This document shows, piece after piece, positions 9,131-54,840 of a stretch of DNA of 64,000 nucleotides. The notes below the pieces were generated by a model. That model made no database searches. It saw only the letters and a list, made by a program, of their open reading frames with translations, and was not told where the DNA came from. Origin of the DNA: Phapecoctavirus DIJ07P1; the sequence record OZ035743.1, one strand, 5' to 3'. Positions within the stretch are counted from its first letter, which is position 1. Each line of letters begins with the position of its first letter. The position numbers and the translations under genes were made by a program.

Positions 9131-9924
9131 TATTCCTCCTTTCTAATGTTCTCCAGAACCCACTGAAGTTCTTTTAAACTTAAACTTCTTACTCCCGCAG
9201 TTTTACTAGCTTCAGCTTTAAGTAACGGGTAAGCCTCAATGATACGCGTTTTAAGATCAGAAGTCAAGGCTTTTAAAAAATAGGTAGATGCTTCAGATAA
9301 AGAATCTTCTTCTGATAACACTTTACCTGCACTTGCTCCCGCTCTCCTAACGGCTATATCGTAGTCTTTACTGTTACCTAATACGAATAGTCGATTCTCT
9401 CCTAAAACAACGGGAGAACGCTTCTCGTTGCGTTTAATCCATATCTGGAATACACAAGGAACATCCCAAGGTTCTCCATGAAGAATAAAAGATCCTTTTG
9501 GACATTCTTCTTCGTAAAGAAGATGCATATGGGGATTTAGTTTGTGTGCAAAAAAGATTTTTTGAAATGTGCGAGGCAAGATAAAACAAATACCACCTTC
9601 GTTATCCAGCATTTCAGCACAATGGTTAAAGAATTTAATGGCAAGACTAGCATTTTTTCCAAATGGAGGATTACCGACAAAAGCAGTTACACTACCAACA
9701 GACTCAACAGATTGAGCTAAAAAATCTGCCTCAATACAATCTTCAAACTTAGGGTCAATATCAAAAGAAGTTATGTTTTTAAAACAAGAAGAGAAAGCTC
9801 CTTCTCCCGCAGATGGTTCTACGTAGTTAGCTTCCTCTCCAAAAATTTCTTTGATCTTATCACATAAGAACCCCGCATAAGCGGGGTTAGTGTAATATTG
9901 ATCAAGTGTGTTCAACTTGCTCAA
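9130..9924 (-). CDS. DNA N6-adenine methyltransferase (orphan, no adjacent nuclease recognised)
   Basis: 264 aa; VEPSAGEGAF (AdoMet motif I) and FVGNPPFGK (NPPF catalytic motif). Confidence 0.75.
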   Translation of the reverse strand: MSKLNTLDQYYTNPAYAGFLCDKIKEIFGEEANYVEPSAGEGAFSSCFKNITSFDIDPKFEDCIEADFLAQSVESVGSVTAFVGNPPFGKNASLAIKFFNHCAEMLDNEGGICFILPRTFQKIFFAHKLNPHMHLLYEEECPKGSFILHGEPWDVPCVFQIWIKRNEKRSPVVLGENRLFVLGNSKDYDIAVRRAGASAGKVLSEEDSLSEASTYFLKALTSDLKTRIIEAYPLLKAEASKTAGVRSLSLKELQWVLENIRKEE

Positions 9925-45380: not shown

Positions 45381-45540
45381 GTTATTTTGTCCTATACAAA
45401 CCCTTGTCTTTTTCAGTTTGCATCACTAGGATTCGATCTGAGTGGGTTCCTGAAGGTTTACCAATAAGATTAAAGGTTATATCAAATTCCCACTATCTTT
45501 TATCTCAAAAATCCCTCAAATTATTTAAACTTTTTAAGAA

Positions 45541-45717
45541 TTTACAAAAATGAAAGTACAAAAGCAAAATTTAAAGTTTAGGAAAATTATCTTAAAATGT
45601 TAGATACAAAACAAAACTCAAAAGTCAAGGAAAATTTTAAAAATTTTGCGCGCCCACAGTATTTAAAGTTTTTTTGCTTTTACAAAAATGAAAGTACAAA
45701 AGCAAAATTTAAAGTTT
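45541..45717. repeat. 40-bp direct repeat pair in AT-rich intergenic region
   Basis: tttacaaaaatgaaagtacaaaagcaaaatttaaagttta at 45541..45580 and 45678..45717. Confidence 0.8.
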
Positions 45718-45740
45718 ACAAAAATTTTTATGCAGGTGAA

Positions 45741-45846
45741 AATGAGAAGAGTTCTCATATGGAAATGCAAATGATAATGATTCGCATTTAAGTTTATAAA
45801 TGAGATTGATTCTTATTTAATAAGGTAAATGACAATCATTCTCATT
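45741..45846. promoter_or_regulatory. Four tandem ~19-bp palindromes resembling the Fur box
   Basis: aatgagaagagttctcat; aatgataatgattcgcatt; aatgagattgattcttatt; aatgacaatcattctcatt at ~28-bp spacing; last copy matches GATAATGATAATCATTATC at 14/16 aligned positions. Confidence 0.45.
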
Positions 45847-46106
45847 TAGAGAATGACGCGCAGGGGCGGTGTTTGTCTCGCGCTCCCGTGTCCCCTCGCC
45901 ATGTAATAAGAATAACAGATCCAGCCAGGAAAGCAAGCGATTATTTTATCTTTACATTTCTTTACAAATATATAGCACCCAGCCTACCGGCGATCAACCT
46001 TCCAACCAGTGCCCCCTGGTATGTTAGCCCCGCCTTTACGCCGTGGGGTGGCGCTTCCTCTTCTGTATGTAAAACAGTATAAGCCCGATCCCTGGGCTTG
46101 TCAAGA

Positions 46107-46373
46107 TTATTTTTTGTTTTCTTGCCAGGATAGGACACCTAACCAAAAATACATATCGCCCCGCGCCCCTGGTGGTATCTTGCTTTCCCCGCCGCCACTG
46201 CAAGCCCATAGATAACCATTTGCGAACGTATCAAAATGATCTATCTCTTCCACCTTATGATCGCCCAGGTTGAGAACGGTTTCAACCTTTAAGCCCGTTG
46301 CGCTTGCTACCTGGTGCACCGTGCCGCCTTGCCAGCCCAATGAGTGCATAAGGTGTAATGTAGTATTTGTCAT
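46107..46373 (-). CDS. Hypothetical protein in GC-rich island
   Basis: 88-aa ORF; competing ORFs on both strands; weak RBS. Confidence 0.35.
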   Translation of the reverse strand: MTNTTLHLMHSLGWQGGTVHQVASATGLKVETVLNLGDHKVEEIDHFDTFANGYLWACSGGGESKIPPGARGDMYFWLGVLSWQENKK

Positions 46374-46482
46374 GATATCGCCCTTTCTTTGTTGTGCGCC
46401 CTGGTTGGCGCGGTAGAAAGATAATAGCCCTTTTCTTTATATATAGCAAGCAAAAAGAAAATAAAAAAGATTGAAAAATGGT

Positions 46483-46540
46483 TGACGTTAACCAGGCGGC
46501 GGCGTAGTATTCATCTTGTAGGGCGGCAATGGTGCCGCTC
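46483..46540 (+). promoter_or_regulatory. Promoter-leader cassette 1
   Basis: TTGACG-spacer-TAGTAT then tagGGCGGCAATGGTGCCGCtc leader hairpin. Confidence 0.6.
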
Positions 46541-46559
46541 ACTATTTGGAGTTAAGATC

Positions 46560-46757
46560 ATGGCAACATTGCACATTGTGGCGAAAGCTGGACAAATCAA
46601 CGTAGTGGTAAACGGTTTTACTGAGTTCAGTCACCCCCAGGATGATCATGAAACGGTTTTATCTTTCATTGATTCCCTGTTAGAAATGGGAGTCATTACA
46701 GAAGACCAGCACGCTACAAAATGCAAGCGCGTTAATCAAATTGCAGGAATAGAATAA
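46560..46757 (+). CDS. Hypothetical small protein
   Basis: Start set at MATLHIVAK after GGAG RBS. Confidence 0.55.
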   Translation: MATLHIVAKAGQINVVVNGFTEFSHPQDDHETVLSFIDSLLEMGVITEDQHATKCKRVNQIAGIE

Positions 46758-46763
46758 AAAGTA

Positions 46764-46823
46764 TTGACAACAAACAACAACCTGATAAGATGTATCACAT
46801 AGGGCGGCGGAATGGTCCACCGC
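46764..46823 (+). promoter_or_regulatory. Promoter-leader cassette 2
   Basis: TTGACA-16-TAAGAT-gtatcacat-aGGGCGGCGGAATGGTCCACCGC; then cacaacagaagagagattatcatc-ATG. Confidence 0.7.
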
Positions 46824-46848
46824 TCACAACAGAAGAGAGATTATCATC

Positions 46849-47121
46849 ATGGCATCATATAGCGCAACAATGATCGTAGCTGGCACCACTGGTAAACCTA
46901 TGCGCGGTGGCGGATCTTTCGCTAATATCAATATTGACGGGCGTTTATCCCTGGACGCAGCGATCACCGTGGCGCGGGAAACATTTAAGAAAGAATGTAA
47001 ATTCAATAAACAAGATTATCTCGGTTTTGCTATTGAAAAAACCGCGCGCTTTGTTGATTATAAAAGCCCGAAAATGGTTGACACTACATTAAAAGCGCAA
47101 GATGTAGCGTTTTTGCTTTAA
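46849..47121 (+). CDS. Hypothetical small protein
   Basis: 90-aa ORF after cassette 2. Confidence 0.6.
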   Translation: MASYSATMIVAGTTGKPMRGGGSFANINIDGRLSLDAAITVARETFKKECKFNKQDYLGFAIEKTARFVDYKSPKMVDTTLKAQDVAFLL

Positions 47122-47124
47122 GGC

Positions 47125-47180
47125 TTGACATTAACGAATAATTTGTTAATATGTTACATAAAGCGGGAATAGTTCCCGCT
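47125..47180 (+). promoter_or_regulatory. Promoter-leader cassette 3
   Basis: TTGACA-16-TAATAT then GCGGGAATAGTTCCCGC hairpin. Confidence 0.65.
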
Positions 47181-47197
47181 ATTTGTAAGGTGGTAGA

Positions 47198-47455
47198 ATG
47201 TTTTACATCAAATTAAAAGGTCACGTGATCGCGTTCAAAGATAACGCTTTTTACAGATTAGCAAAATATGCGTTAATACATCCCCACTATGTTTATATAA
47301 GGGGGCGTGATGAAATAAATATCTTTGATCAAACAACATGCGAGAACATCGAGATCCGCAAGGTTGGCGTACGTGATTATCGTACATCTTTCTACCCTTG
47401 CAAGGATTCAGCAAGTCTTTTTAAAGTATGCCAATTGTTGAAAAAAGGTGGTTAA
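47198..47455 (+). CDS. Hypothetical small protein
   Basis: 85-aa ORF, RBS AAGGTGG. Confidence 0.6.
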   Translation: MFYIKLKGHVIAFKDNAFYRLAKYALIHPHYVYIRGRDEINIFDQTTCENIEIRKVGVRDYRTSFYPCKDSASLFKVCQLLKKGG

Positions 47456-48014
47456 TATGGGCCGCGAATATGTGATCCAGTCTTGGGTAAAACATGAAGC
47501 AGATGATCCGCGCATCATTCCCGATCATCTTATCGATGAATCCACGGGATATAGTGGTGAGCAAATAGGTAACAGATTAGCACGTAGTAACGGCAACGTA
47601 AAAGCGCGTTATGTGCGCCCTGGTTGGCTGGCAAATGGTAACGCTGATTTATCCAGTGCGGAAGATGCGAGCGACGGCGCGAAAGATAATCCTTTGTACA
47701 AAGTTGATCCAGCTTTTCGTGTCCTGGATGAATACCCCAGCAAGATAGCGGCGCTCGATCAGGCCCTGGAAAGTAAGCGCATCACCTGGACCGCTTACAA
47801 CATGGCAAAAAACGTACTTGATGGTAAATTGATTCAAGCTGAAAGAAAATTAGCCAAAATTGCAGCCATAGCCCAGGAGGAAGACGAGGAGACAACGGAA
47901 GAGGAAGAGTACGAAGAGATCCCGCCGTTGTTGTGTGTTGATGCTTTTCCTGATTATCAGCCGACAGAGGAAGAAAAAAGGATCGCACTAGAAAACTTTG
48001 AAAATAGTCTTTGA
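47448..48014 (+). CDS. Hypothetical acidic protein
   Basis: 188-aa ORF co-transcribed with previous; start 47448 or 47456. Confidence 0.6.
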   Translation: MVNMGREYVIQSWVKHEADDPRIIPDHLIDESTGYSGEQIGNRLARSNGNVKARYVRPGWLANGNADLSSAEDASDGAKDNPLYKVDPAFRVLDEYPSKIAALDQALESKRITWTAYNMAKNVLDGKLIQAERKLAKIAAIAQEEDEETTEEEEYEEIPPLLCVDAFPDYQPTEEEKRIALENFENSL

Positions 48015-48068
48015 CATATCGCCGCCACTGGCATAATATTTACCACGTAGGGCGGCAATGGTGCCGCT
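48012..48068 (+). promoter_or_regulatory. Promoter-leader cassette 4
   Basis: TTGACA-16-CATAAT then GCGGCAATGGTGCCGC hairpin. Confidence 0.65.
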
Positions 48069-48096
48069 CATAGTGAAATTATGCAAGAGGCTTACA

Positions 48097-48192
48097 ATGA
48101 TTAATAAAGAAAATAGCTTGACGGTTGGAACGATTAACGCTATCATTCTAGCCGTTCCATTTTGGGTTGTAGTAGCGGCTATTATTTTCTAA
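48097..48192 (+). CDS. 31-aa hydrophobic peptide
   Basis: MINKENSLTVGTINAIILAVPFWVVVAAIIF read manually; RBS AAGAGG; only ORF after cassette 4. Confidence 0.4.
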   Translation: MINKENSLTVGTINAIILAVPFWVVVAAIIF

Positions 48193-48200
48193 AAATATTC

Positions 48201-48261
48201 TTGACAACGTTTTTTAATCTGATAAGATGTATCACATAGGGCGGCGGAATACTTCCCCGCC
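48201..48261 (+). promoter_or_regulatory. Promoter-leader cassette 5
   Basis: TTGACA-16-TAAGAT-gtatcacat-aGGGCGGCGGAATACTTCCCCGCC. Confidence 0.7.
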
Positions 48262-48284
48262 AAAACAAAAAAAAGGGTAACACA

Positions 48285-48647
48285 ATGAGCAAGCAAATCA
48301 ATACTATCATGTTTAATCTGGTATCTTTCCGCGATGATATGAAAAATTTACCACGTGAAACGGTTGATATTCATGTTTCAGCTTATCGCGCCCTTATTGA
48401 CATGTTACCGCTAAAACGTGATCAACATGCCGCTAATATGATGCTTAATGCTATGCTTAAAAAGATGATTCAAACGGATCTTACTCTGGCGTATGAGTAT
48501 CAAGGGCGCTTATATGCGACTTACAACAAAGCGGTACCTGGTCTGGGAAGTACCGAAGAGTTGCACGGCTTAAACCTGGATCAAAACACTTGGGATAGTA
48601 TGCGCCGCGTTATGGTATGGGCCGAAAGCGGTAAAATTTACGAATAA
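48285..48647 (+). CDS. Hypothetical protein
   Basis: 120-aa ORF. Confidence 0.6.
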   Translation: MSKQINTIMFNLVSFRDDMKNLPRETVDIHVSAYRALIDMLPLKRDQHAANMMLNAMLKKMIQTDLTLAYEYQGRLYATYNKAVPGLGSTEELHGLNLDQNTWDSMRRVMVWAESGKIYE

Positions 48648-48654
48648 AAACGGT

Positions 48655-48710
48655 TGACACTGTTTAAACTTCTGGTATAGTTTATCACGTAGGGCGGCAA
48701 TGGTGCCGCC
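48655..48710 (+). promoter_or_regulatory. Promoter-leader cassette 6
   Basis: TTGACA-16-TATAGT-ttatcacgt-aGGGCGGCAATGGTGCCGCC. Confidence 0.7.
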
Positions 48711-48730
48711 AACAATAAAAGGTTAACATC

Positions 48731-48910
48731 ATGGCTATCATTGCAAAAACTGAGATTATAGGTTTAGATTCGATCCTCCTGGCTTATGAGGAAACTTTAA
48801 AAATGTATGTAGTGACCTATGGTGATTATGTGCGTGAATACGAATACATTGATCTTGCTTTCGAATGTTACATTCGCCAGGTCAATAAAGCCTATAATGA
48901 TTATCGTTAA
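48731..48910 (+). CDS. Hypothetical small protein (59 aa, below ORF-track cutoff)
   Basis: MAIIAKTEIIGLDSILLAYEETLKMYVVTYGDYVREYEYIDLAFECYIRQVNKAYNDYR read manually. Confidence 0.5.
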   Translation: MAIIAKTEIIGLDSILLAYEETLKMYVVTYGDYVREYEYIDLAFECYIRQVNKAYNDYR

Positions 48911-48929
48911 AAGTTTTAGTCTTATACTA

Positions 48930-48981
48930 TTGACAATGAGTGATAGTATAAGCATAATAACTTTTATCGGGAATACTTCCC
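48930..48981 (+). promoter_or_regulatory. Promoter-leader cassette 7 (degenerate hairpin)
   Basis: TTGACA-17-CATAAT then CGGGAATACTTCCC. Confidence 0.55.
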
Positions 48982-49007
48982 ACTAACCAAAAAGAGAGAG
49001 TGACACC

Positions 49008-49373
49008 ATGGCTATTAATATCAATGTTTCCGCTTATGCTACCCTGGCTAACACGGCTAAAATTGAATTATCCAGCATTGAGGCGGTGCATATTAGCGCC
49101 CGTCGCTGGTTTCAACAGTCCTACGGTAACACATATTTTTCTTTAATGGTTGACGTTGAGATCGGCGGTAAACTGATCGAGGTGGTTAACGTTCCGTTTC
49201 AATATGGCTATGGTGATCATTTTGATACCGTCGCCCTGGAAGAATTTAGCAAGGTTATCAACCTTGAGGGCAAGGAATTTTCACGCGGCGCGTATCTTTC
49301 CCGTTTTTGCCGTGACAATGGGATCACTGTATACAGTCATGCAAGCGATGTAAAACGTAAAAAAGATTTATAA
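49008..49373 (+). CDS. Hypothetical protein
   Basis: 121-aa ORF. Confidence 0.6.
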   Translation: MAININVSAYATLANTAKIELSSIEAVHISARRWFQQSYGNTYFSLMVDVEIGGKLIEVVNVPFQYGYGDHFDTVALEEFSKVINLEGKEFSRGAYLSRFCRDNGITVYSHASDVKRKKDL

Positions 49374-49379
49374 AAAGCA

Positions 49380-49438
49380 TTGACAGCACGAATAAAAAGA
49401 GTAAACTGTATTACATAGAGAGCGGGAATAGTTCCCGC
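49380..49438 (+). promoter_or_regulatory. Promoter-leader cassette 8
   Basis: TTGACA-16-TAAACT-gtattacatagaga-GCGGGAATAGTTCCCGC. Confidence 0.65.
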
Positions 49439-49462
49439 CTCATTCAAAGAGAGATTATCATC

Positions 49463-49702
49463 ATGGCTATTACTAAAACTTACAACGGTCACAAAAACAA
49501 AACTCACTGGAATGTAAGCCTTTGGATTAATAACGACGAATCATTATATCGGTTGGCGAAAGAATTTATCGCCGCTAATACTAATCGTAATGATGCTGCC
49601 CGTGATATGATGTTATTCCTGGAACAAACTGGACAAGATAAAACTCCAGACGGTTTCAAGTATAGCACTACAGCGATCCGCGCCGCGATGGTTGGAATGT
49701 AA
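49463..49702 (+). CDS. Hypothetical small protein
   Basis: 79-aa ORF. Confidence 0.6.
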   Translation: MAITKTYNGHKNKTHWNVSLWINNDESLYRLAKEFIAANTNRNDAARDMMLFLEQTGQDKTPDGFKYSTTAIRAAMVGM

Positions 49703-49711
49703 TAAAAACAG

Positions 49712-49771
49712 TTGACAACGTTTAAAATTAGTGTAAGATGTATCACATAGGGCGGGAAGTGGTTTCCCGCC
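49712..49771 (+). promoter_or_regulatory. Promoter-leader cassette 9
   Basis: TTGACA-16-TAAGAT-gtatcacat-aGGGCGGGAAGTGGTTTCCCGCC (perfect 8-bp stem). Confidence 0.7.
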
Positions 49772-49793
49772 AACAACAGAGAGATTAAAGATT

Positions 49794-50021
49794 ATGGCTA
49801 TCAATATTGTTCGCGTATCCGGCACCGTTGGCACTTCCCAGGTTATTGCAGTTGTAACAAACAAAAAGATTAATGATGTATGTGAGATCTTGAATAAGTG
49901 GGCTATTGCTAATTTTGGGGAATATGCAAGCGTCGAGTACATCGAATCCTACCAGGTGCCAACCATCAGCCTGACCGATCTCAACGTTGATCGCCTGTTA
50001 TGCCTGGATGAATTAATCTGA
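49794..50021 (+). CDS. Hypothetical small protein
   Basis: 75-aa ORF. Confidence 0.6.
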   Translation: MAINIVRVSGTVGTSQVIAVVTNKKINDVCEILNKWAIANFGEYASVEYIESYQVPTISLTDLNVDRLLCLDELI

Positions 50022-50032
50022 AAAAGATTGTT

Positions 50033-50086
50033 GACACGGGAAAGAAAAAGAGTAAACTGTTACAGGTAGGGCGGGAATAGTGCCGC
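50033..50086 (+). promoter_or_regulatory. Promoter-leader cassette 10 (hybrid hairpin)
   Basis: TTGACA...TAAACT-gttacaggt-aGGGCGGGAATAGTGCCGC; 5' arm of one variant with 3' arm of another. Confidence 0.6.
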
Positions 50087-50111
50087 TCACAACAGAAGAG
50101 AGATTATCACG

Positions 50112-50324
50112 ATGGCTAATATCCGCACACTGTTAAAAAATGCAAGTCAAGTTTTATTTTCTGATCACGATCATTTTAATAAAGATATTACAGGCGTGAA
50201 GAATATCAAAGATGTAAAAAGTGTTATGGGTATATATTGCAATGTTAAACGTGTTGGAACGTTCGGTGATAAAGTATTGTACCAATCAGGTGATTACAAT
50301 TTTACTTTGACGATTATTTCATAA
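50112..50324 (+). CDS. Hypothetical small protein
   Basis: 70-aa ORF. Confidence 0.6.
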   Translation: MANIRTLLKNASQVLFSDHDHFNKDITGVKNIKDVKSVMGIYCNVKRVGTFGDKVLYQSGDYNFTLTIIS

Positions 50325-50329
50325 AACGC

Positions 50330-50391
50330 TTGCAATACTGCAAAAATAAAGTAAACTGTATTACATCAAGGCGGCGGAATGGTCCACCGCC
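50330..50391 (+). promoter_or_regulatory. Promoter-leader cassette 11
   Basis: TTGCAA...TAAACT-gtattacatca-aGGCGGCGGAATGGTCCACCGCC. Confidence 0.6.
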
Positions 50392-50415
50392 TAACAAAGA
50401 GAAGAGGAAAATATT

Positions 50416-50583
50416 ATGATCACTTTCGCTACCCGTGAAGCCGCTCGCAACGTTGCACGTAAAGTTAACGCCGCCAACCTGGGCGCTACGCTTAAAGCCC
50501 CTGTAAAAGATGAATCAGGAAAATGGATCTTCCCTGGTCTACGTCATGCTGACAAGTTAGGTACTTTAAGCCTTAAAAAATAA
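50416..50583 (+). CDS. Hypothetical small basic protein (55 aa, below ORF-track cutoff)
   Basis: MITFATREAARNVARKVNAANLGATLKAPVKDESGKWIFPGLRHADKLGTLSLKK read manually; shares MITFA start with 50836..51057. Confidence 0.5.
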   Translation: MITFATREAARNVARKVNAANLGATLKAPVKDESGKWIFPGLRHADKLGTLSLKK

Positions 50584-50585
50584 TC

Positions 50586-50625
50586 GTTGACTTTTCGTTA
50601 TAGCGCCTTATAATGGGCGCTATAG
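50586..50625 (+). promoter_or_regulatory. Promoter with -10 embedded in a palindrome
   Basis: TTGACT-17-TATAAT with atagcgcc / ggcgctat inverted repeat flanking the -10. Confidence 0.55.
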
Positions 50626-50660
50626 AGAAGAGAAACCAGTCACAACAGAGAGAAAATATC

Positions 50661-50822
50661 ATGACCAATAAAGAAAAAGCCATCATTAAAGCACATTATC
50701 CACATCTAACATTACGTTTTAAAGCCGATGGATCTGTTATGGCCTCCAGTGGGCGCGGGTATGCTTACGGTTTACTTTACACCGCACAACAAGCGCAAGA
50801 TCATTTAAACGCAGTAAAATAA
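50661..50822 (+). CDS. Hypothetical small protein
   Basis: Start set at MTNKEK after GAGAGAAAA RBS (ORF track begins 50613). Confidence 0.5.
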   Translation: MTNKEKAIIKAHYPHLTLRFKADGSVMASSGRGYAYGLLYTAQQAQDHLNAVK

Positions 50823-50835
50823 CAAGGAAACCATT

Positions 50836-51057
50836 ATGATCACTTTCGCTATTGTCGCCGTTGTTGCTGGTCAAGTTTACGTAAATGAGACATTTACTAC
50901 AGAAGACAAGGCAGCAGGAGATATAACCGCCGTTTACAATGAGTGCAAGGCAGTAGAAAGGATGTTAGCGCCTTGTATGCTAATGAGTGAACGCCAGGAC
51001 GGAATAACAGTATTTACTAACATTGGAACAGGGTACCAAATGGTAGTAACAAAATAA
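50836..51057 (+). CDS. Hypothetical small protein with hydrophobic N-terminus
   Basis: 73-aa ORF, RBS AAGGAAA. Confidence 0.55.
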   Translation: MITFAIVAVVAGQVYVNETFTTEDKAAGDITAVYNECKAVERMLAPCMLMSERQDGITVFTNIGTGYQMVVTK

Positions 51058-51060
51058 AGC

Positions 51061-51117
51061 TTGACACCGATTTAATTTTTAGTAAACTGTTACAGGTAGG
51101 GCGGGAATAGTTCCCGC
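51061..51117 (+). promoter_or_regulatory. Promoter-leader cassette 12
   Basis: TTGACA...TAAACT-gttacaggt-aGGGCGGGAATAGTTCCCGC. Confidence 0.7.
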
Positions 51118-51136
51118 TCAAAAAGAGAGAAAGACC

Positions 51137-51490
51137 ATGAAAGCACAAAATGCAATTAAAGAGTACATCCTTGCCGCTATCGATTTTAATGATTACGGTA
51201 TTACAACCGAAAAAGAGAAGATCGCGGAATTGATGCGCCGTTTTAATTCCGAGTACTGGTACCCTGATAACCAATCACGTTTTAATTATAGTATTGTTAA
51301 AGCACTTGCATCATGGTTACAAGGTTTGCCATCAGATATCAATATCGCTTTCGAATATTGGGAAATTGATCGCTTGTTAACATCCTGGGGATACATTAAA
51401 GAGAATAGCAGCGATGATAAAATCCAACGAGAAAGGGAAAATTATTGGCTTTATATTGCAGGCGTGATCCTTGCTTGCTCTTATGAATGA
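51137..51490 (+). CDS. Hypothetical protein
   Basis: 117-aa ORF. Confidence 0.6.
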   Translation: MKAQNAIKEYILAAIDFNDYGITTEKEKIAELMRRFNSEYWYPDNQSRFNYSIVKALASWLQGLPSDINIAFEYWEIDRLLTSWGYIKENSSDDKIQRERENYWLYIAGVILACSYE

Positions 51491-51496
51491 TAAACC

Positions 51497-51549
51497 TTGA
51501 CAATTTTACAAAACAGTTTAAATTAACAATATAGCGGCAATGGTGCCGC
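51497..51549 (+). promoter_or_regulatory. Promoter-leader cassette 13
   Basis: TTGACA-16-TAAATT...ataGCGGCAATGGTGCCGC. Confidence 0.6.
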
Positions 51550-51568
51550 TCATATGAAGAGGAAACAA

Positions 51569-51715
51569 AATGAATACATCTAATCGCGCAGAAAAAATTC
51601 AATCTTCCAAGATCCGCAAGGCCTGGAACGAGGAAGTGATCCGCAAAGGCGACAAGCGTAATAAAACAAAGCGCGGGAAGAGTGACAAATATAATTGGAT
51701 GGATTTAGAGGATTA
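51569..51715 (+). CDS. 48-aa Lys/Arg-rich basic protein (below ORF-track cutoff)
   Basis: MNTSNRAEKIQSSKIRKAWNEEVIRKGDKRNKTKRGKSDKYNWMDLED, codons checked manually; RBS GAGGAAA. Confidence 0.5.
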
Positions 51716-51722
51716 ACATAAC

Positions 51723-51749
51723 AAGGGCGCATCAAGCGCCCTTTCTTTT
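51723..51749 (+). terminator. Rho-independent terminator (copy 1 of a repeated terminator)
   Basis: agggcgcatcaagcgccct followed by ttcttttt. Confidence 0.75.
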
Positions 51750-51771
51750 TACATGTAGAGGATAAACAAAA

Positions 51772-51957
51772 ATGACTTTAAACGAGCTTAAAACAGCCTA
51801 CAACGCAACATTAAAAATAGCCGTGCGTTACCGTGATGCGTATGGTTTTATCGCGCAGGGCGTGATCCTGGGCTTTTCTGACGATGGTTTGATCTATGTT
51901 GATGCACATCACAACAAGGTTAAACCTGAAAACGTCATTAGCATAAAATATCTTTAA
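51772..51957 (+). CDS. Hypothetical small protein
   Basis: 61-aa ORF, RBS AGAGGA. Confidence 0.55.
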   Translation: MTLNELKTAYNATLKIAVRYRDAYGFIAQGVILGFSDDGLIYVDAHHNKVKPENVISIKYL

Positions 51958-51963
51958 AAACGG

Positions 51964-52020
51964 TTGACAGCATAACCAAGTATGATAAGATGTATCACGT
52001 AGGGCGGGAATAGTTCCCGA
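51964..52020 (+). promoter_or_regulatory. Promoter-leader cassette 14
   Basis: TTGACA-16-TAAGAT-gtatcacgt-aGGGCGGGAATAGTTCCCG. Confidence 0.7.
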
Positions 52021-52042
52021 CCACATAAAAGAGAAAAACATT

Positions 52043-52255
52043 ATGACCACTATCACAACAAAACAAGAAAAAATTATTACAGACATTGCCGCAGTAGCCG
52101 CTATTGCTATTATTGGTACCTACTATGACACCGCGCGACCTTCCTCCTTACATGAGATCGCCGCCGTTGCATCAGTTGGCGTACTGTTTTACGTTGGTAA
52201 ACGCTATTTATCACCAATGATTAACAAGCTGACACCGTGGAAAAATAAAGGTTGA
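52043..52255 (+). CDS. Small membrane protein
   Basis: 70 aa, hydrophobic core. Confidence 0.55.
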   Translation: MTTITTKQEKIITDIAAVAAIAIIGTYYDTARPSSLHEIAAVASVGVLFYVGKRYLSPMINKLTPWKNKG

Positions 52256-52261
52256 TCCTGT

Positions 52262-52316
52262 TTTATATTGTGTTATAGTTATCGTGTAGGGCGGCAATGG
52301 TGCCGCGCCCCTTTGA
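52262..52316 (+). promoter_or_regulatory. Promoter-leader cassette 15
   Basis: TTGATC-16-TATAGT-tatcgtgt-aGGGCGGCAATGGTGCCGC. Confidence 0.6.
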
Positions 52317-52326
52317 GGATGCAATC

Positions 52327-52611
52327 ATGCGTAAAGCTAACACCGTGCTAATGTTTTCCCTGATTAATAATGCCGCTTACTTGTCCAACATGACGCAGGA
52401 GGGTAACACATTAACGGCAACATTCACCAATAAGCTTGACCGAGTGATCATAATCTCACTGAAAACAGTTAGTAAAGGCTTTTACTCGTTAGCTTATCAT
52501 TGTATCACTGACACCGACGAGACAAGCCAGGACTATAGCGCCCCTTTCCCTGAATCAATGGCACGGGAGATCATCGCCGCCGTTGTAAATGATGGTTTGT
52601 TTACTGCATAA
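52327..52611 (+). CDS. Hypothetical protein
   Basis: Start set at MRKANT after GAGGATG RBS. Confidence 0.55.
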   Translation: MRKANTVLMFSLINNAAYLSNMTQEGNTLTATFTNKLDRVIIISLKTVSKGFYSLAYHCITDTDETSQDYSAPFPESMAREIIAAVVNDGLFTA

Positions 52612-52627
52612 AATAATTCAGAAAAGG

Positions 52628-52686
52628 CTTGCAATAATTTTCAGACCGTGTATATTTAATTCATAGGGCGGCGGGAATAGTTCCCT
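52628..52686 (+). promoter_or_regulatory. Promoter-leader cassette 16 (degenerate)
   Basis: TTGCAA...TATATT...catagGGCGGCGGGAATAGTTCCC. Confidence 0.55.
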
Positions 52687-52708
52687 AAGCAAACGAGAGG
52701 ATTACACG

Positions 52709-52828
52709 ATGAGCAAGTATACAGTAGAATACACGGTAGAAAATCCGGCAGTATCCGAAGGTAAAAAGATGACATTTGCCATCAGTATAATCGCTTTCGT
52801 TATCACTATCTTATCAATCATCTTATAA
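52709..52828 (+). CDS. 39-aa hydrophobic peptide
   Basis: MSKYTVEYTVENPAVSEGKKMTFAISIIAFVITILSIIL read manually; RBS GAGAGGA. Confidence 0.4.
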   Translation: MSKYTVEYTVENPAVSEGKKMTFAISIIAFVITILSIIL

Positions 52829-52966
52829 GGTGCGTACTATGAAAACAACAGACATTATCAAAGAGATCGCCCTTGCCGCTGACGTTGAGATCGAGGAAGT
52901 GATCGCGCTCAACCTTACAGAAAACGATCTACTCAATCTATGAAGCGTTATAATTGACAACAAAAC

Positions 52967-52993
52967 AAGGGCGCACCAAGCGCCCTTTCTTTT
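52967..52993 (+). terminator. Rho-independent terminator (copy 2, near-identical to 51723..51749)
   Basis: agggcgcaccaagcgccct followed by ttcttttt. Confidence 0.75.
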
Positions 52994-52994
52994 T

Positions 52995-54495
52995 GCCCGA
53001 ACAATGTTGATAGCTTTCGCCTATGAAAAACCGACACAGAACAAAACTGAATAAATCGCGGTATCGAGCTAATCAACCAGCAAACGAATAACCATACCTC
53101 CCAGGGTTACAGGCTGTTAGAGAGCCATTTAGAGCGGTTAAAATCGATCAACAACCAACAACAAACCATCAAAAACACCCTTTTACCTCCTTTCTAGTGC
53201 AATGATAACCATTATCATCTACCCATGATTATCTATGCAATATAAGCGCATAATTATAATGTTGATAATAGTTCGCAACAACTAACCAACAAACAACATA
53301 AAACAATAAGCAAACTAATCATAATCAAAGGAATAATAGCAAGATGATTGATAACGACAAACAATCAAACCATGATGAATACTAAGCAAGATAACGATAA
53401 CACGACAAAACAACCAACTAACGAACAATAACAAACGAAACCATTAAAATAATAACTATTAGCAAAATAGTGCATGAATGAAATCATTACAAAACGAATC
53501 ATTCACAGAGTCATCATTAGCACGCTATGCCGGACACATAGCGAGCTAATAATAAGCCAACTACACCCCAACAATCATAACCATCGGTGACGGTTATTTC
53601 TTGTTACTGCGTAGCTTGCAATAATTGCAAGCGTAATGACGCTTACACTTATTGCGCTGGCTTATTATTAGCATTATATGTAATTACCAAGATCATAACA
53701 TTAGCGCAATAACAATAGTCATTGTGATAATTACAAGATGAGATCATTAGCAAGATGAATAATTGCACGTAGCAACATGAGCGAATAGCGACAGGTTGCA
53801 TAGTGTGCACATAGTGTATAAACATACAAGAAAATAAAGGCTAATCTTTTGGGGGCGAATACTATCGCGTAGCGATATGTTGAGCACCTTCTCTTAAACG
53901 TAAATAAAATCAGAAAATTCTTGATTTATTTTGGCTTTTATGTTAATAAACGTTTAAATAATAATCATTCTCATATAAATAATAGTCTGCTTGTCATGAG
54001 CGGCATTAGTTGACATTGTTCCGTCATATGATGAAGTTGCCAAGCCATTGATAAATAAGTGTTTGTGTGATTTATAATCAGGTGGCCCACCTTGTCGCTA
54101 TGTTGGCATGAGCCTTGCATAAGTCATTGAATACGAATGATAATTATTCTCATTCGCATGATATTTGGGAATTGTCGCTGCGTGGACCTGACGGCCCGAA
54201 AATTCGCGTTAAGCACTTCTTACGTATGCGCCATGATTTTTGCCATATGATATTGATTCTATTAGATATTCTTGCCATTATTGCCATGAAACAGGGTGTG
54301 TCGAAATAATTGCTCCCCGTAGATATTTTGGGTTACTTTTTATACAAGAGTGGGGTGTCAAAAATAATCGGTATATATGGGATAATTGATAGGAATCCCC
54401 TATGATAATTCGATTGTAATTCCCTAAGATTGATCGTATGATGTTGGTGATTGATGATTGCCATGAAAGATGGCTAACGATGAGAGGAGATTGTC
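52995..54495. other. A/C-rich, strand-asymmetric non-coding region (~1.5 kb)
   Basis: No convincing ORF; plus strand dominated by A and C with recurring CAAGATGA / GATAACGA / ATCATTAGC words. Confidence 0.6.
53957..54157. promoter_or_regulatory. Fur-box-like palindromes (second locus)
   Basis: aataataatcattctcat (53957..53974) and cgaatgataattattctcattcg (54135..54157); same motif family as 45741..45846. Confidence 0.45.
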
Positions 54496-54840
54496 ATGCA
54501 AGAGAGTAAAAATGTTCCGTTGAGTAGTTTACGTCTAATGAAGTTTTACAAAGCTTGGCTTGCTGGTGAGGTAGAAGGTCACACAACGAGTGGTTTGTGC
54601 ATATGTTTGATTAAGTATGTAGAGGGAACATATCCTGATAAACTGTTACCTCGTCTACAACAGGAGATGAAATCACAGTTTATTAGTGCAGGATTGGATT
54701 ACAATTTCCCGTTTAATGAAGGTGGTTATGAAGAATACACCTTCGAACATAAAAAACATATTTGCCATAAAAACAAACATCGTATACAATGGGTGTTAGA
54801 TAGAATTCAGGATTATGAAGGAGAGAAAAATGACAAATAG
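54496..54840 (+). CDS. Paralogue family X member 1
   Basis: 114 aa; shares FYKAWL, TSGLC.CL, AGLDYN.PFN, R.QWV.DRI blocks with 54830..55198 and 60255..60569. Confidence 0.65.
   Translation: MQESKNVPLSSLRLMKFYKAWLAGEVEGHTTSGLCICLIKYVEGTYPDKLLPRLQQEMKSQFISAGLDYNFPFNEGGYEEYTFEHKKHICHKNKHRIQWVLDRIQDYEGEKNDK

Follow-up and report, generated by a model that had tools for sequence, protein, structure and literature searches.

Putative Fur-box arrays in the terminal repeat and a non-coding hub of phAPEC8-like phages, with a counterpart in phage T5

To our knowledge, binding sites for the host iron sensor Fur (Fur boxes) have been known on phage DNA only as single sites before prophage cargo genes; the stx1 promoter is one prophage-borne Fur site. 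The closest described non-coding system lies in phage T5, where 'Repeat Region 3' is a candidate injection stop signal (iss), with a calculated first-step-transfer shear point at ~9618 and major nick 1 at 9661-9668 (10.1101/866236). In that analysis, which lists the T5 repeats, Davison proposed a role for the DnaA boxes only, considered that the function of the other T5 repeats cannot be guessed, and made no mention of Fur (10.1101/866236). Our full-text search of the literature found no paper linking Fur to the non-coding repeats of T5, phAPEC8, phi92 or rV5, and the one paper that mentions 'Fur box' as well as 'phage T5' deals with the sitABCD genes of lambdoid prophages (PMC6969025). Here we analyze a 64,000-nucleotide stretch of the E. 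coli phage Phapecoctavirus DIJ07P1 (OZ035743.1; referred to throughout as the window), in which a family of palindromes clusters at two non-coding loci, locus A near 45.7 kb and locus B near the terminal repeat of the virion DNA. The phage carries a set of at least eight of these boxes: four in the locus A array, two or three just left of the terminal repeat, and two inside the repeat. Judging from their sequence, we lean slightly towards reading them as Fur boxes in the terminal repeat and the locus-A hub that host Fe2+-Fur would bind, and that would act as an iron-dependent barrier to, or repressor of, RNA polymerase rather than as recombination sites. These findings suggest that lytic phages may recruit the host iron sensor to key non-coding DNA.

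A palindrome family resembling host Fur operators

The closest relatives of the window are Phapecoctavirus (phAPEC8-like) myophages of ~150 kb; a megablast search with 45.0-55.5 kb matched 216 phage records, the best being vB_EcoM-Ro121lw (99% identity) and Schickermooser (98%), and the complete Ro121lw genome (149.8 kb) served for the genome-wide motif test. A sequence-only reading of the window had assigned AATAATAATCATTCTCAT (53957-53974) and CGAATGATAATTATTCTCATTCG (54134-54156) to the same palindrome family as the sites at 45.7 kb, which is borne out by the coordinates and by a 7-1-7 inverted repeat that these two sites share with four sites at 45743, 45772, 45801 and 45830. When we searched the window for the pattern TGAKAATNATTMTCA with up to two mismatches, we observed nine matches compared with 2.16 expected, a number attained in 0 of 100 shuffles, and eight of the nine fell within two non-coding stretches, namely those four in locus A and 53203, 53263, 53959 and 54138 in locus B. 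The members at 53203 and 53263, together with a weaker one at 53450, had been overlooked in the earlier reading and extend locus B to 53.2-54.15 kb, while Tandem Repeats Finder describes locus A as a tandem array with a period of 29 and 2.9 copies. The genome-wide scan proposed in the same reading finds the motif infrequent across the genome: all six Ro121lw matches with at most one mismatch lie within the two loci, and the six scattered matches with two mismatches are at chance level (~4.8 expected).

We take the consensus of the motif to be the enterobacterial Fur box (19-bp GATAATGATAATCATTATC, or TGATAATnATTATCA in its 7-1-7 form), and this recognition was checked by three sequence tests. 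We built a symmetrised matrix from the 21-mers of the eight phage sites and ran it across 50 kb of E. coli K-12 (595-645 kb). Its top four matches, at fepB-entC (21.0 and 15.6), fepA-fes (17.7) and fepD-entS (14.1), fall in the three divergent promoters through which Fur controls the enterobactin cluster, the next best site scoring 10.1. Across three further 50-kb stretches of K-12, the TGAKAATNATTMTCA pattern matched the fhuA, fecI and cirA promoters with at most two mismatches and the fecA promoter with three. Conversely, a matrix made only from the eight host cores (the enterobactin-cluster, fhuA, fecI, cirA and fecA sites) placed the eight phage sites at ranks 1-8 in the window, with scores of 13.1-18.3 compared with 12.9 for the next site. 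By sequence, the phage family is indistinguishable from host Fur operators. Since tblastn revealed no Fur homolog encoded in Stephanstirmvirinae, Vequintavirinae or Tequintavirus records, binding would depend on the host protein, and the predicted binder is host Fur rather than a phage repressor.

We considered whether the likeness to the Fur box might be coincidental, the true ligand being a phage-encoded DNA-binding protein such as a repressor, an initiator or the small terminase. The repeat units do reach past the Fur core, the boxes occur in the terminal repeat, where terminase must act, and locus A is adjoined by an open reading frame (ORF) of 88 amino acids with a helix-turn-helix-like stretch. 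However, this neighbor, present in 151 records that are mostly Stephanstirmvirinae, is absent from box-carrying T5-like and Certrevirus genomes, which makes a phage-encoded binder unlikely; the boxes are found in three phage lineages without an obvious common candidate protein, and the matrix tests against genuine host Fur promoters succeed in either direction. We therefore regard a phage-encoded binder as quite improbable.

Other Stephanstirmvirinae retain box clusters at each of the two loci, and Vequintavirinae retain them at the 45.7-kb one. Identity between the window and phiWec181 is 91% over 52950-53680 and 64% over 53681-54495, and the terminal-repeat region is 63-65% identical (63% in the repeat outside the boxes), yet the B1 and B2 cores match at 15/15 positions each. 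B0 is identical in phiWec181, and the B2 core is lengthened there by one hexamer to GATAATGATAATTATTCTC, which agrees with the classical Fur consensus at 17/19 positions by manual count; muut has B2 as well. The terminal non-coding region of muut (genus Justusliebigvirus) aligns only partly, and it holds two boxes ~195 bp apart, ~350 bp upstream of the first gene, with two more further left. Counts at locus A vary: there are five boxes (0-1 mismatch) in phi92, four or five in muut and, spaced by 29 bp, three in FBKp34; within Vequintavirinae there are four in CR9, three in KaOmega, two in each of Mydo and AV124 and one in GEC_vB_MG, and the 29-bp spacing recurs in several of these phages. Across nine genomes from phages of Escherichia, Klebsiella, Cronobacter, Proteus and Salmonella, the last box of locus A hardly varies, and the 29-bp spacing is conserved whereas the inter-box sequence is not. 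A relaxed double-box pattern was also found in IMG/VR, in at least 120 stretches, some of them on contigs whose size is T5-like or ~150 kb; these matches show only that double-box arrays are common.

Left of the terminal repeat, 53460-53520 contains a tandem run of short units in which AATCATT, the middle of the Fur box, is frequent, at a spot annotated in muut only as 'repeat_region'; these units may be extra low-affinity Fur half-sites. The coordinates of all boxes and of the features around them are collected in Table 1.

Table 1. Boxes and neighboring features, in window coordinates
Feature	Position	Strand	Description
Locus A	45743..45844		Four boxes, cores starting at 45743, 45772, 45801 and 45830; exact 29-bp centre-to-centre spacing
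Conserved non-coding module	45846..46075		Adjoins locus A on the right; ~220-230 bp; invariant 36-nt core GGTAYGTTAGCCCCGCCTTTNCGCCGTGGGGTGGCG
Sigma-70 promoter-like site	46076..46104	-	TTGACA-17-TATACT; strong; at the module's right edge, pointing through the module towards the box array
88-amino-acid ORF	46107-46373	-	phi92 gp224 family, phrog_19316; helix-turn-helix-like stretch GGTVHQVASATGL; strand opposite to all neighbors
'Bracketed' early block	46380..52990	+	~20 small early genes, ~16 preceded by a TTGACA-16/17 promoter; no promoter overlaps a box
Box B0	53203..53217		TGATAACCATTATCA; non-coding DNA left of the terminal repeat (genome right end); rank 2 with host-derived matrix
Box B0'	53263..53277		TGATAATAGTTCGCA; 2 mismatches
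Weak box	53450..53464		TAATAACTATTAGCA; marginal score
Direct terminal repeat of virion DNA	53883..54211		329 bp; one collapsed copy in the window; from record starts and ends of relatives
Box B1	53959..53973		Core TAATAATCATTCTCA; 1 mismatch; 76 bp from the terminal repeat's left end; rank 3 with host-derived matrix
Box B2	54138..54152		Core TGATAATTATTCTCA; fits the 7-1-7 pattern without mismatch; distance to the repeat ends 255 bp (left) and 59 bp (right); rank 1 with host-derived matrix
Proximal promoter of the 54496 gene	54414-54442		TTGTAA-17-TATGAT; conserved; without box
First gene after the terminal repeat	54496..54840	+	114 amino acids; function not assigned by PHROGs

The terminal repeat and the injection-stop region of phage T5

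The window is a permuted assembly in which the terminal repeat has collapsed to a single copy. The linear Schickermooser record starts at window position 53883 and ends at 54211, the Ro121lw record also starts at 53883, that of 118_SA_NWU ends at 53882, and both WPEC1 and WPEC6 break at 54211; the terminal repeat of Schickermooser has been reported as 328 bp by Korf et al. (PMC6563267). Both boundaries of the repeat carry the motif TTR/AGCACYTTCT (53880-53893 and 54209-54222; slash at the repeat boundary), which persists as conserved islands within diverged surroundings in phiWec181 and muut and is plausibly where terminase nicks or cuts to produce the terminal repeat. B1 and B2 lie within this 329-bp direct repeat and are therefore present at both ends of every virion DNA.

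A 74-nt piece at the repeat's right edge that takes in the boundary motif (54159-54232) has an 85% match in 146 of 5426 complete E. coli genomes, at an unannotated spot. In the one genome inspected, NZ_CP024257, the 74-nt piece directly follows the stop codon of a small serine recombinase gene and sits in a ~7-8 kb island adjoining a tRNA-Leu gene. Such a piece may belong to a satellite or hitchhiker carrying its helper's cut or packaging site, or may be a shared recombinase site. A host origin of the terminal repeat was rejected, as the E. coli islands match the 74-nt right-edge piece only and leave the boxes unmatched.

The sequence-only reading had further seen the motif bracket the 46.4-54.5 kb segment and had offered paired operators or recombination boundaries of a cassette as possible roles; closer comparison does not support the latter, a mobile 8-kb cassette. 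Because B1 and B2 belong to the terminal repeat, the apparent bracketing stems from the permuted assembly, in which the right-end early block and the terminus are joined to the left end, and the segment amounts to the conserved early genes of the right end followed by the genome terminus, not to a cassette. The presence-and-absence comparison that had been suggested shows that more than 200 relatives have the segment in synteny; indels of gene size do occur, but within the block and with breakpoints away from the boxes, an example being the ~5 kb extra in Schickermooser at ~52.95 kb. No duplicated core flanks the block, locus A is a four-copy array instead of a single crossover core, and among the 216 matching records we saw no exact loss or inversion of 45.85-53.95 kb leaving one hybrid box. 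A PHROGs scan of ten flanking ORFs returned only 'unknown function'; all genes in and around the homologous segment of Ro121lw are annotated 'hypothetical protein', no dedicated recombinase search having been made, and the sole annotated 'resolvase' of that genome lies ~11 kb beyond the left end. What speaks for recombination boundaries is the geometry in the permuted window alone, together with the 74-nt piece beside a serine recombinase gene in the E. coli island, though this piece is outside the boxes, and we consider the cassette highly improbable. The idea of paired operators fared better in part: an operator-type, protein-binding palindrome of one family at both loci stands, whereas the pairing is doubtful, neither locus overlapping a convincing promoter.

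The family reappears in phage T5. A 55-bp part of locus A (45763-45817) matches many T5-like genomes by BLAST with 83-87% identity, inside their terminal repeat. In T5 itself (AY587007), matrix matches with cores at 9475, 9510, 9579 and 9614 line up with copies 1-4 of the annotated 'direct repeat C' and with palindromes E, G and I of the annotated set E, G, H, I, and the box arrangement in chee24 is the same. The same boxes compose the "bewildering" palindromes of the T5 injection-stop region, for which no binding protein is known despite work dating back to the 1960s, and we regard the terminal-repeat location together with this T5 link as the valuable results of the analysis. A perfect box, TGATAATCATTATCA, also occurs at T5 233-247, inside the dmp gene and 233 bp from the left genome end, which resembles the distances of B1 and B2 (76 and 255 bp); chee24 is 99% identical there, a comparison uninformative on conservation.

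This T5 context is the main reason why an architectural role is a close rival of the transcriptional one. Fur would bind the boxes, but the complex would act in DNA entry as a pause or anchor, in end protection, in terminase recognition or repeat duplication, or in replication initiation. The T5 array (9475-9635) lies in the left terminal repeat, coincides with the shear point at ~9618 and is 30 bp from major nick 1, and in the window B1 and B2 are inside the repeat, 59-330 bp from the conserved cut-site motifs. Boxes placed in promoter-poor DNA, with a 29-bp spacing that is kept while the inter-box sequence varies, are likewise consistent with architecture. Locus A, however, is 8 kb from the terminus, and a role needing iron-loaded Fur would fail in iron-starved hosts. 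The T5 context is also only partly common, there being no DnaA boxes beside the phAPEC8-like boxes: the DnaA box TTWTNCACA was found near neither locus, and its six occurrences in the window, compared with 11 expected, are all elsewhere. Moreover, we are not aware of any report that T5 needs fur as an essential host factor. Weighing both sides, we judge a purely architectural use of Fur unlikely, though a serious contender.

A predicted iron-dependent barrier and its surroundings

An iron-dependent transcription barrier is our leading guess for the function of the boxes, with the architectural role at the genome ends as its close rival. In an iron-replete cell, Fe2+-Fur dimers would occupy the boxes once the DNA enters and would leave them when iron is scarce, so that a nucleoprotein complex dependent on iron would form at the genome ends and at the locus-A hub. 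Bound Fur would then be a local barrier or repressor for host RNA polymerase, limiting weak initiation inside the hubs and read-through into them; the boxes of locus B come after the terminator that closes the early block. One candidate is transcription that starts at the minus-strand promoter (46104-46076) and would run through the ~220-bp module into the array; an early non-coding function would thereby be coupled to iron status.

Several points weigh against this proposal. The whole case for Fur is built on sequence, in AT-rich DNA, and the repeat units are longer than the Fur core (AAATGA...CATTT; T5 'DRC' units of 25-31 bp), so that a binder additional to or different from Fur may be involved. 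No box overlaps the typical strong early promoters of the phage, and a promoter scan of both loci found, weak AT-rich strings aside, no box overlapped by a site scoring 9/12 or better. B1 and B2 do have promoter-like strings (TTAAAT-18-AATAAT and TTGCAT-18-GATAAT, respectively), which match at only 8/12 positions with -35 elements that are not conserved in phiWec181 or muut, and the string at the last locus-A box of Vequintavirinae (TTGAAT-18-CAGAAT) also matches at 8/12 with a poorly conserved -35. The boxes thus seem to depart from the classical arrangement of a Fur box on a promoter. The homologous array of T5 lies downstream of annotated terminators and far from annotated pre-early promoters, a position no less compatible with architecture than with transcriptional control. 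Finally, a barrier that works only with iron would be an odd design for an obligately lytic phage.

The number of high-quality boxes and the lack of an obvious regulated gene also bring to mind a Fur decoy or sponge, in which hundreds of replicated genomes with ~10 boxes each would titrate Fur and derepress host iron uptake, to the benefit of the phage's iron-dependent ribonucleotide reductases; the phage encodes two of these, NrdAB (class Ia) and NrdDG (class III). In the Fur titration assay attributed to Stojiljkovic et al. in 1994, multicopy Fur boxes are said to derepress the Fur regulon. A sponge would have no need of precise, conserved placement by the module and in the repeat, however, and the number of boxes at locus A ranges from 1 to 5 among relatives, both of which make it less likely. 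In addition, T5 degrades host DNA early, and derepressing host genes would achieve nothing there. Overall, we find a Fur sponge improbable.

Extending the iron-dependent reading across lineages, we tentatively entertain, as possible though doubtful, that T5-like, phAPEC8/phi92-like and rV5-like phages all recruit Fur to cis-acting non-coding DNA at or close to their genome ends, that the T5 palindromes and 'direct repeat C' form a Fur array, and that host iron, through Fur, gates DNA entry, early development or both. If Fur does bind, three questions become testable: the cause of the stop in T5 DNA entry, a possible sensing of host iron by lytic phages, and the role of the conserved non-coding module in rV5- and phi92-like phages. 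If true, this would be relevant to phage therapy, iron being limiting at infection sites.

The module beside locus A is kept across Stephanstirmvirinae and Vequintavirinae in a nine-genome alignment and carries a tandem TCTTTACA motif. A coding reading was rejected since its indels and spacer lengths in this alignment are not multiples of three, and some records annotate a frameshifted 'hypothetical protein' at this place. An Rfam search of 44.5-55.5 kb (E up to 1) returned nothing relevant and left the module unmatched. When RNA structure was evaluated on both strands, we observed one clean compensatory pair with the other columns invariant, which amounts to weak covariation. The module could be an RNA of a new type, an origin or another cis element. 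The promoter at its right edge is conserved in position and hexamers in phi92, FBKp34, CR9 and Mydo. To the left of locus A, 45480-45725 holds AT-rich direct repeats, with the unit TTACAAAAATGAAAGTACAAAAGCAAAATTTAAAGTTTA occurring twice and (T)ATTTAAAGTTT about four times, and analogous AT-rich repeats occupy the same place in phi92 and FBKp34.

From 39 kb onward, genes in the window are on the plus strand, and the window contains no tRNA genes. Within the early block, the promoters of the small genes share a perfect TTGACA -35 element, with a 16-nt spacer in ~16 copies. Bidirectional terminators with identical stems (AAGGGCGC...GCGCCCTT) lie at 51723-51743 and 52967-52987, the latter ending the block and being followed by ~900 bp of non-coding DNA and the terminus.

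Comparison with known systems

The nearest counterpart is T5 Repeat Region 3, which shares the box family and the setting of a large untranslated region inside a terminal repeat, although in the window B1 and B2 are in the repeat and locus A is outside it. The T5 terminal repeat is ~10 kb and encodes pre-early genes, and paired DnaA boxes and nine DRD repeats stand beside its boxes, whereas the phAPEC8-like boxes have neither DnaA boxes nor DRD repeats beside them; likewise, two-step DNA transfer is known for T5 but not for phAPEC8-like phages. By analogy, IHF site I1 in lambda cosB and the DnaA boxes in the T5 iss region resemble the arrangement proposed here in that a host protein is recruited to cis non-coding DNA near a genome end. 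We know of no phage shown to use Fur in packaging, entry or replication, and the lambda and T5 comparison is meant as analogy only.

Prophage cargo genes such as sitABCD likewise place host Fur sites on phage DNA (PMC6969025). Those at stx1 and sitABCD are single operators on virulence or iron-uptake promoters of temperate phages, whereas the boxes described here form arrays without a cargo gene in virulent phages. The likeness to the host Fur boxes at fhuA, fepA-fes, fepB-entC, fecI and cirA is one of sequence, evident in both matrix directions, and extends to overlapping or adjacent multiples as in host operators; the phage boxes differ in lying off any recognisable iron-gene promoter, in the terminal repeat and non-coding hubs, and in forming a regular 29-bp array. 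They thus belong to a known sequence class, the Fur box, but seem to fall outside the class of promoter-embedded Fur operators of iron genes, and what appears to be new here is the presence of conserved arrays of putative Fur boxes, without a cargo gene, in the terminal repeat and a non-coding hub of obligately lytic phages.

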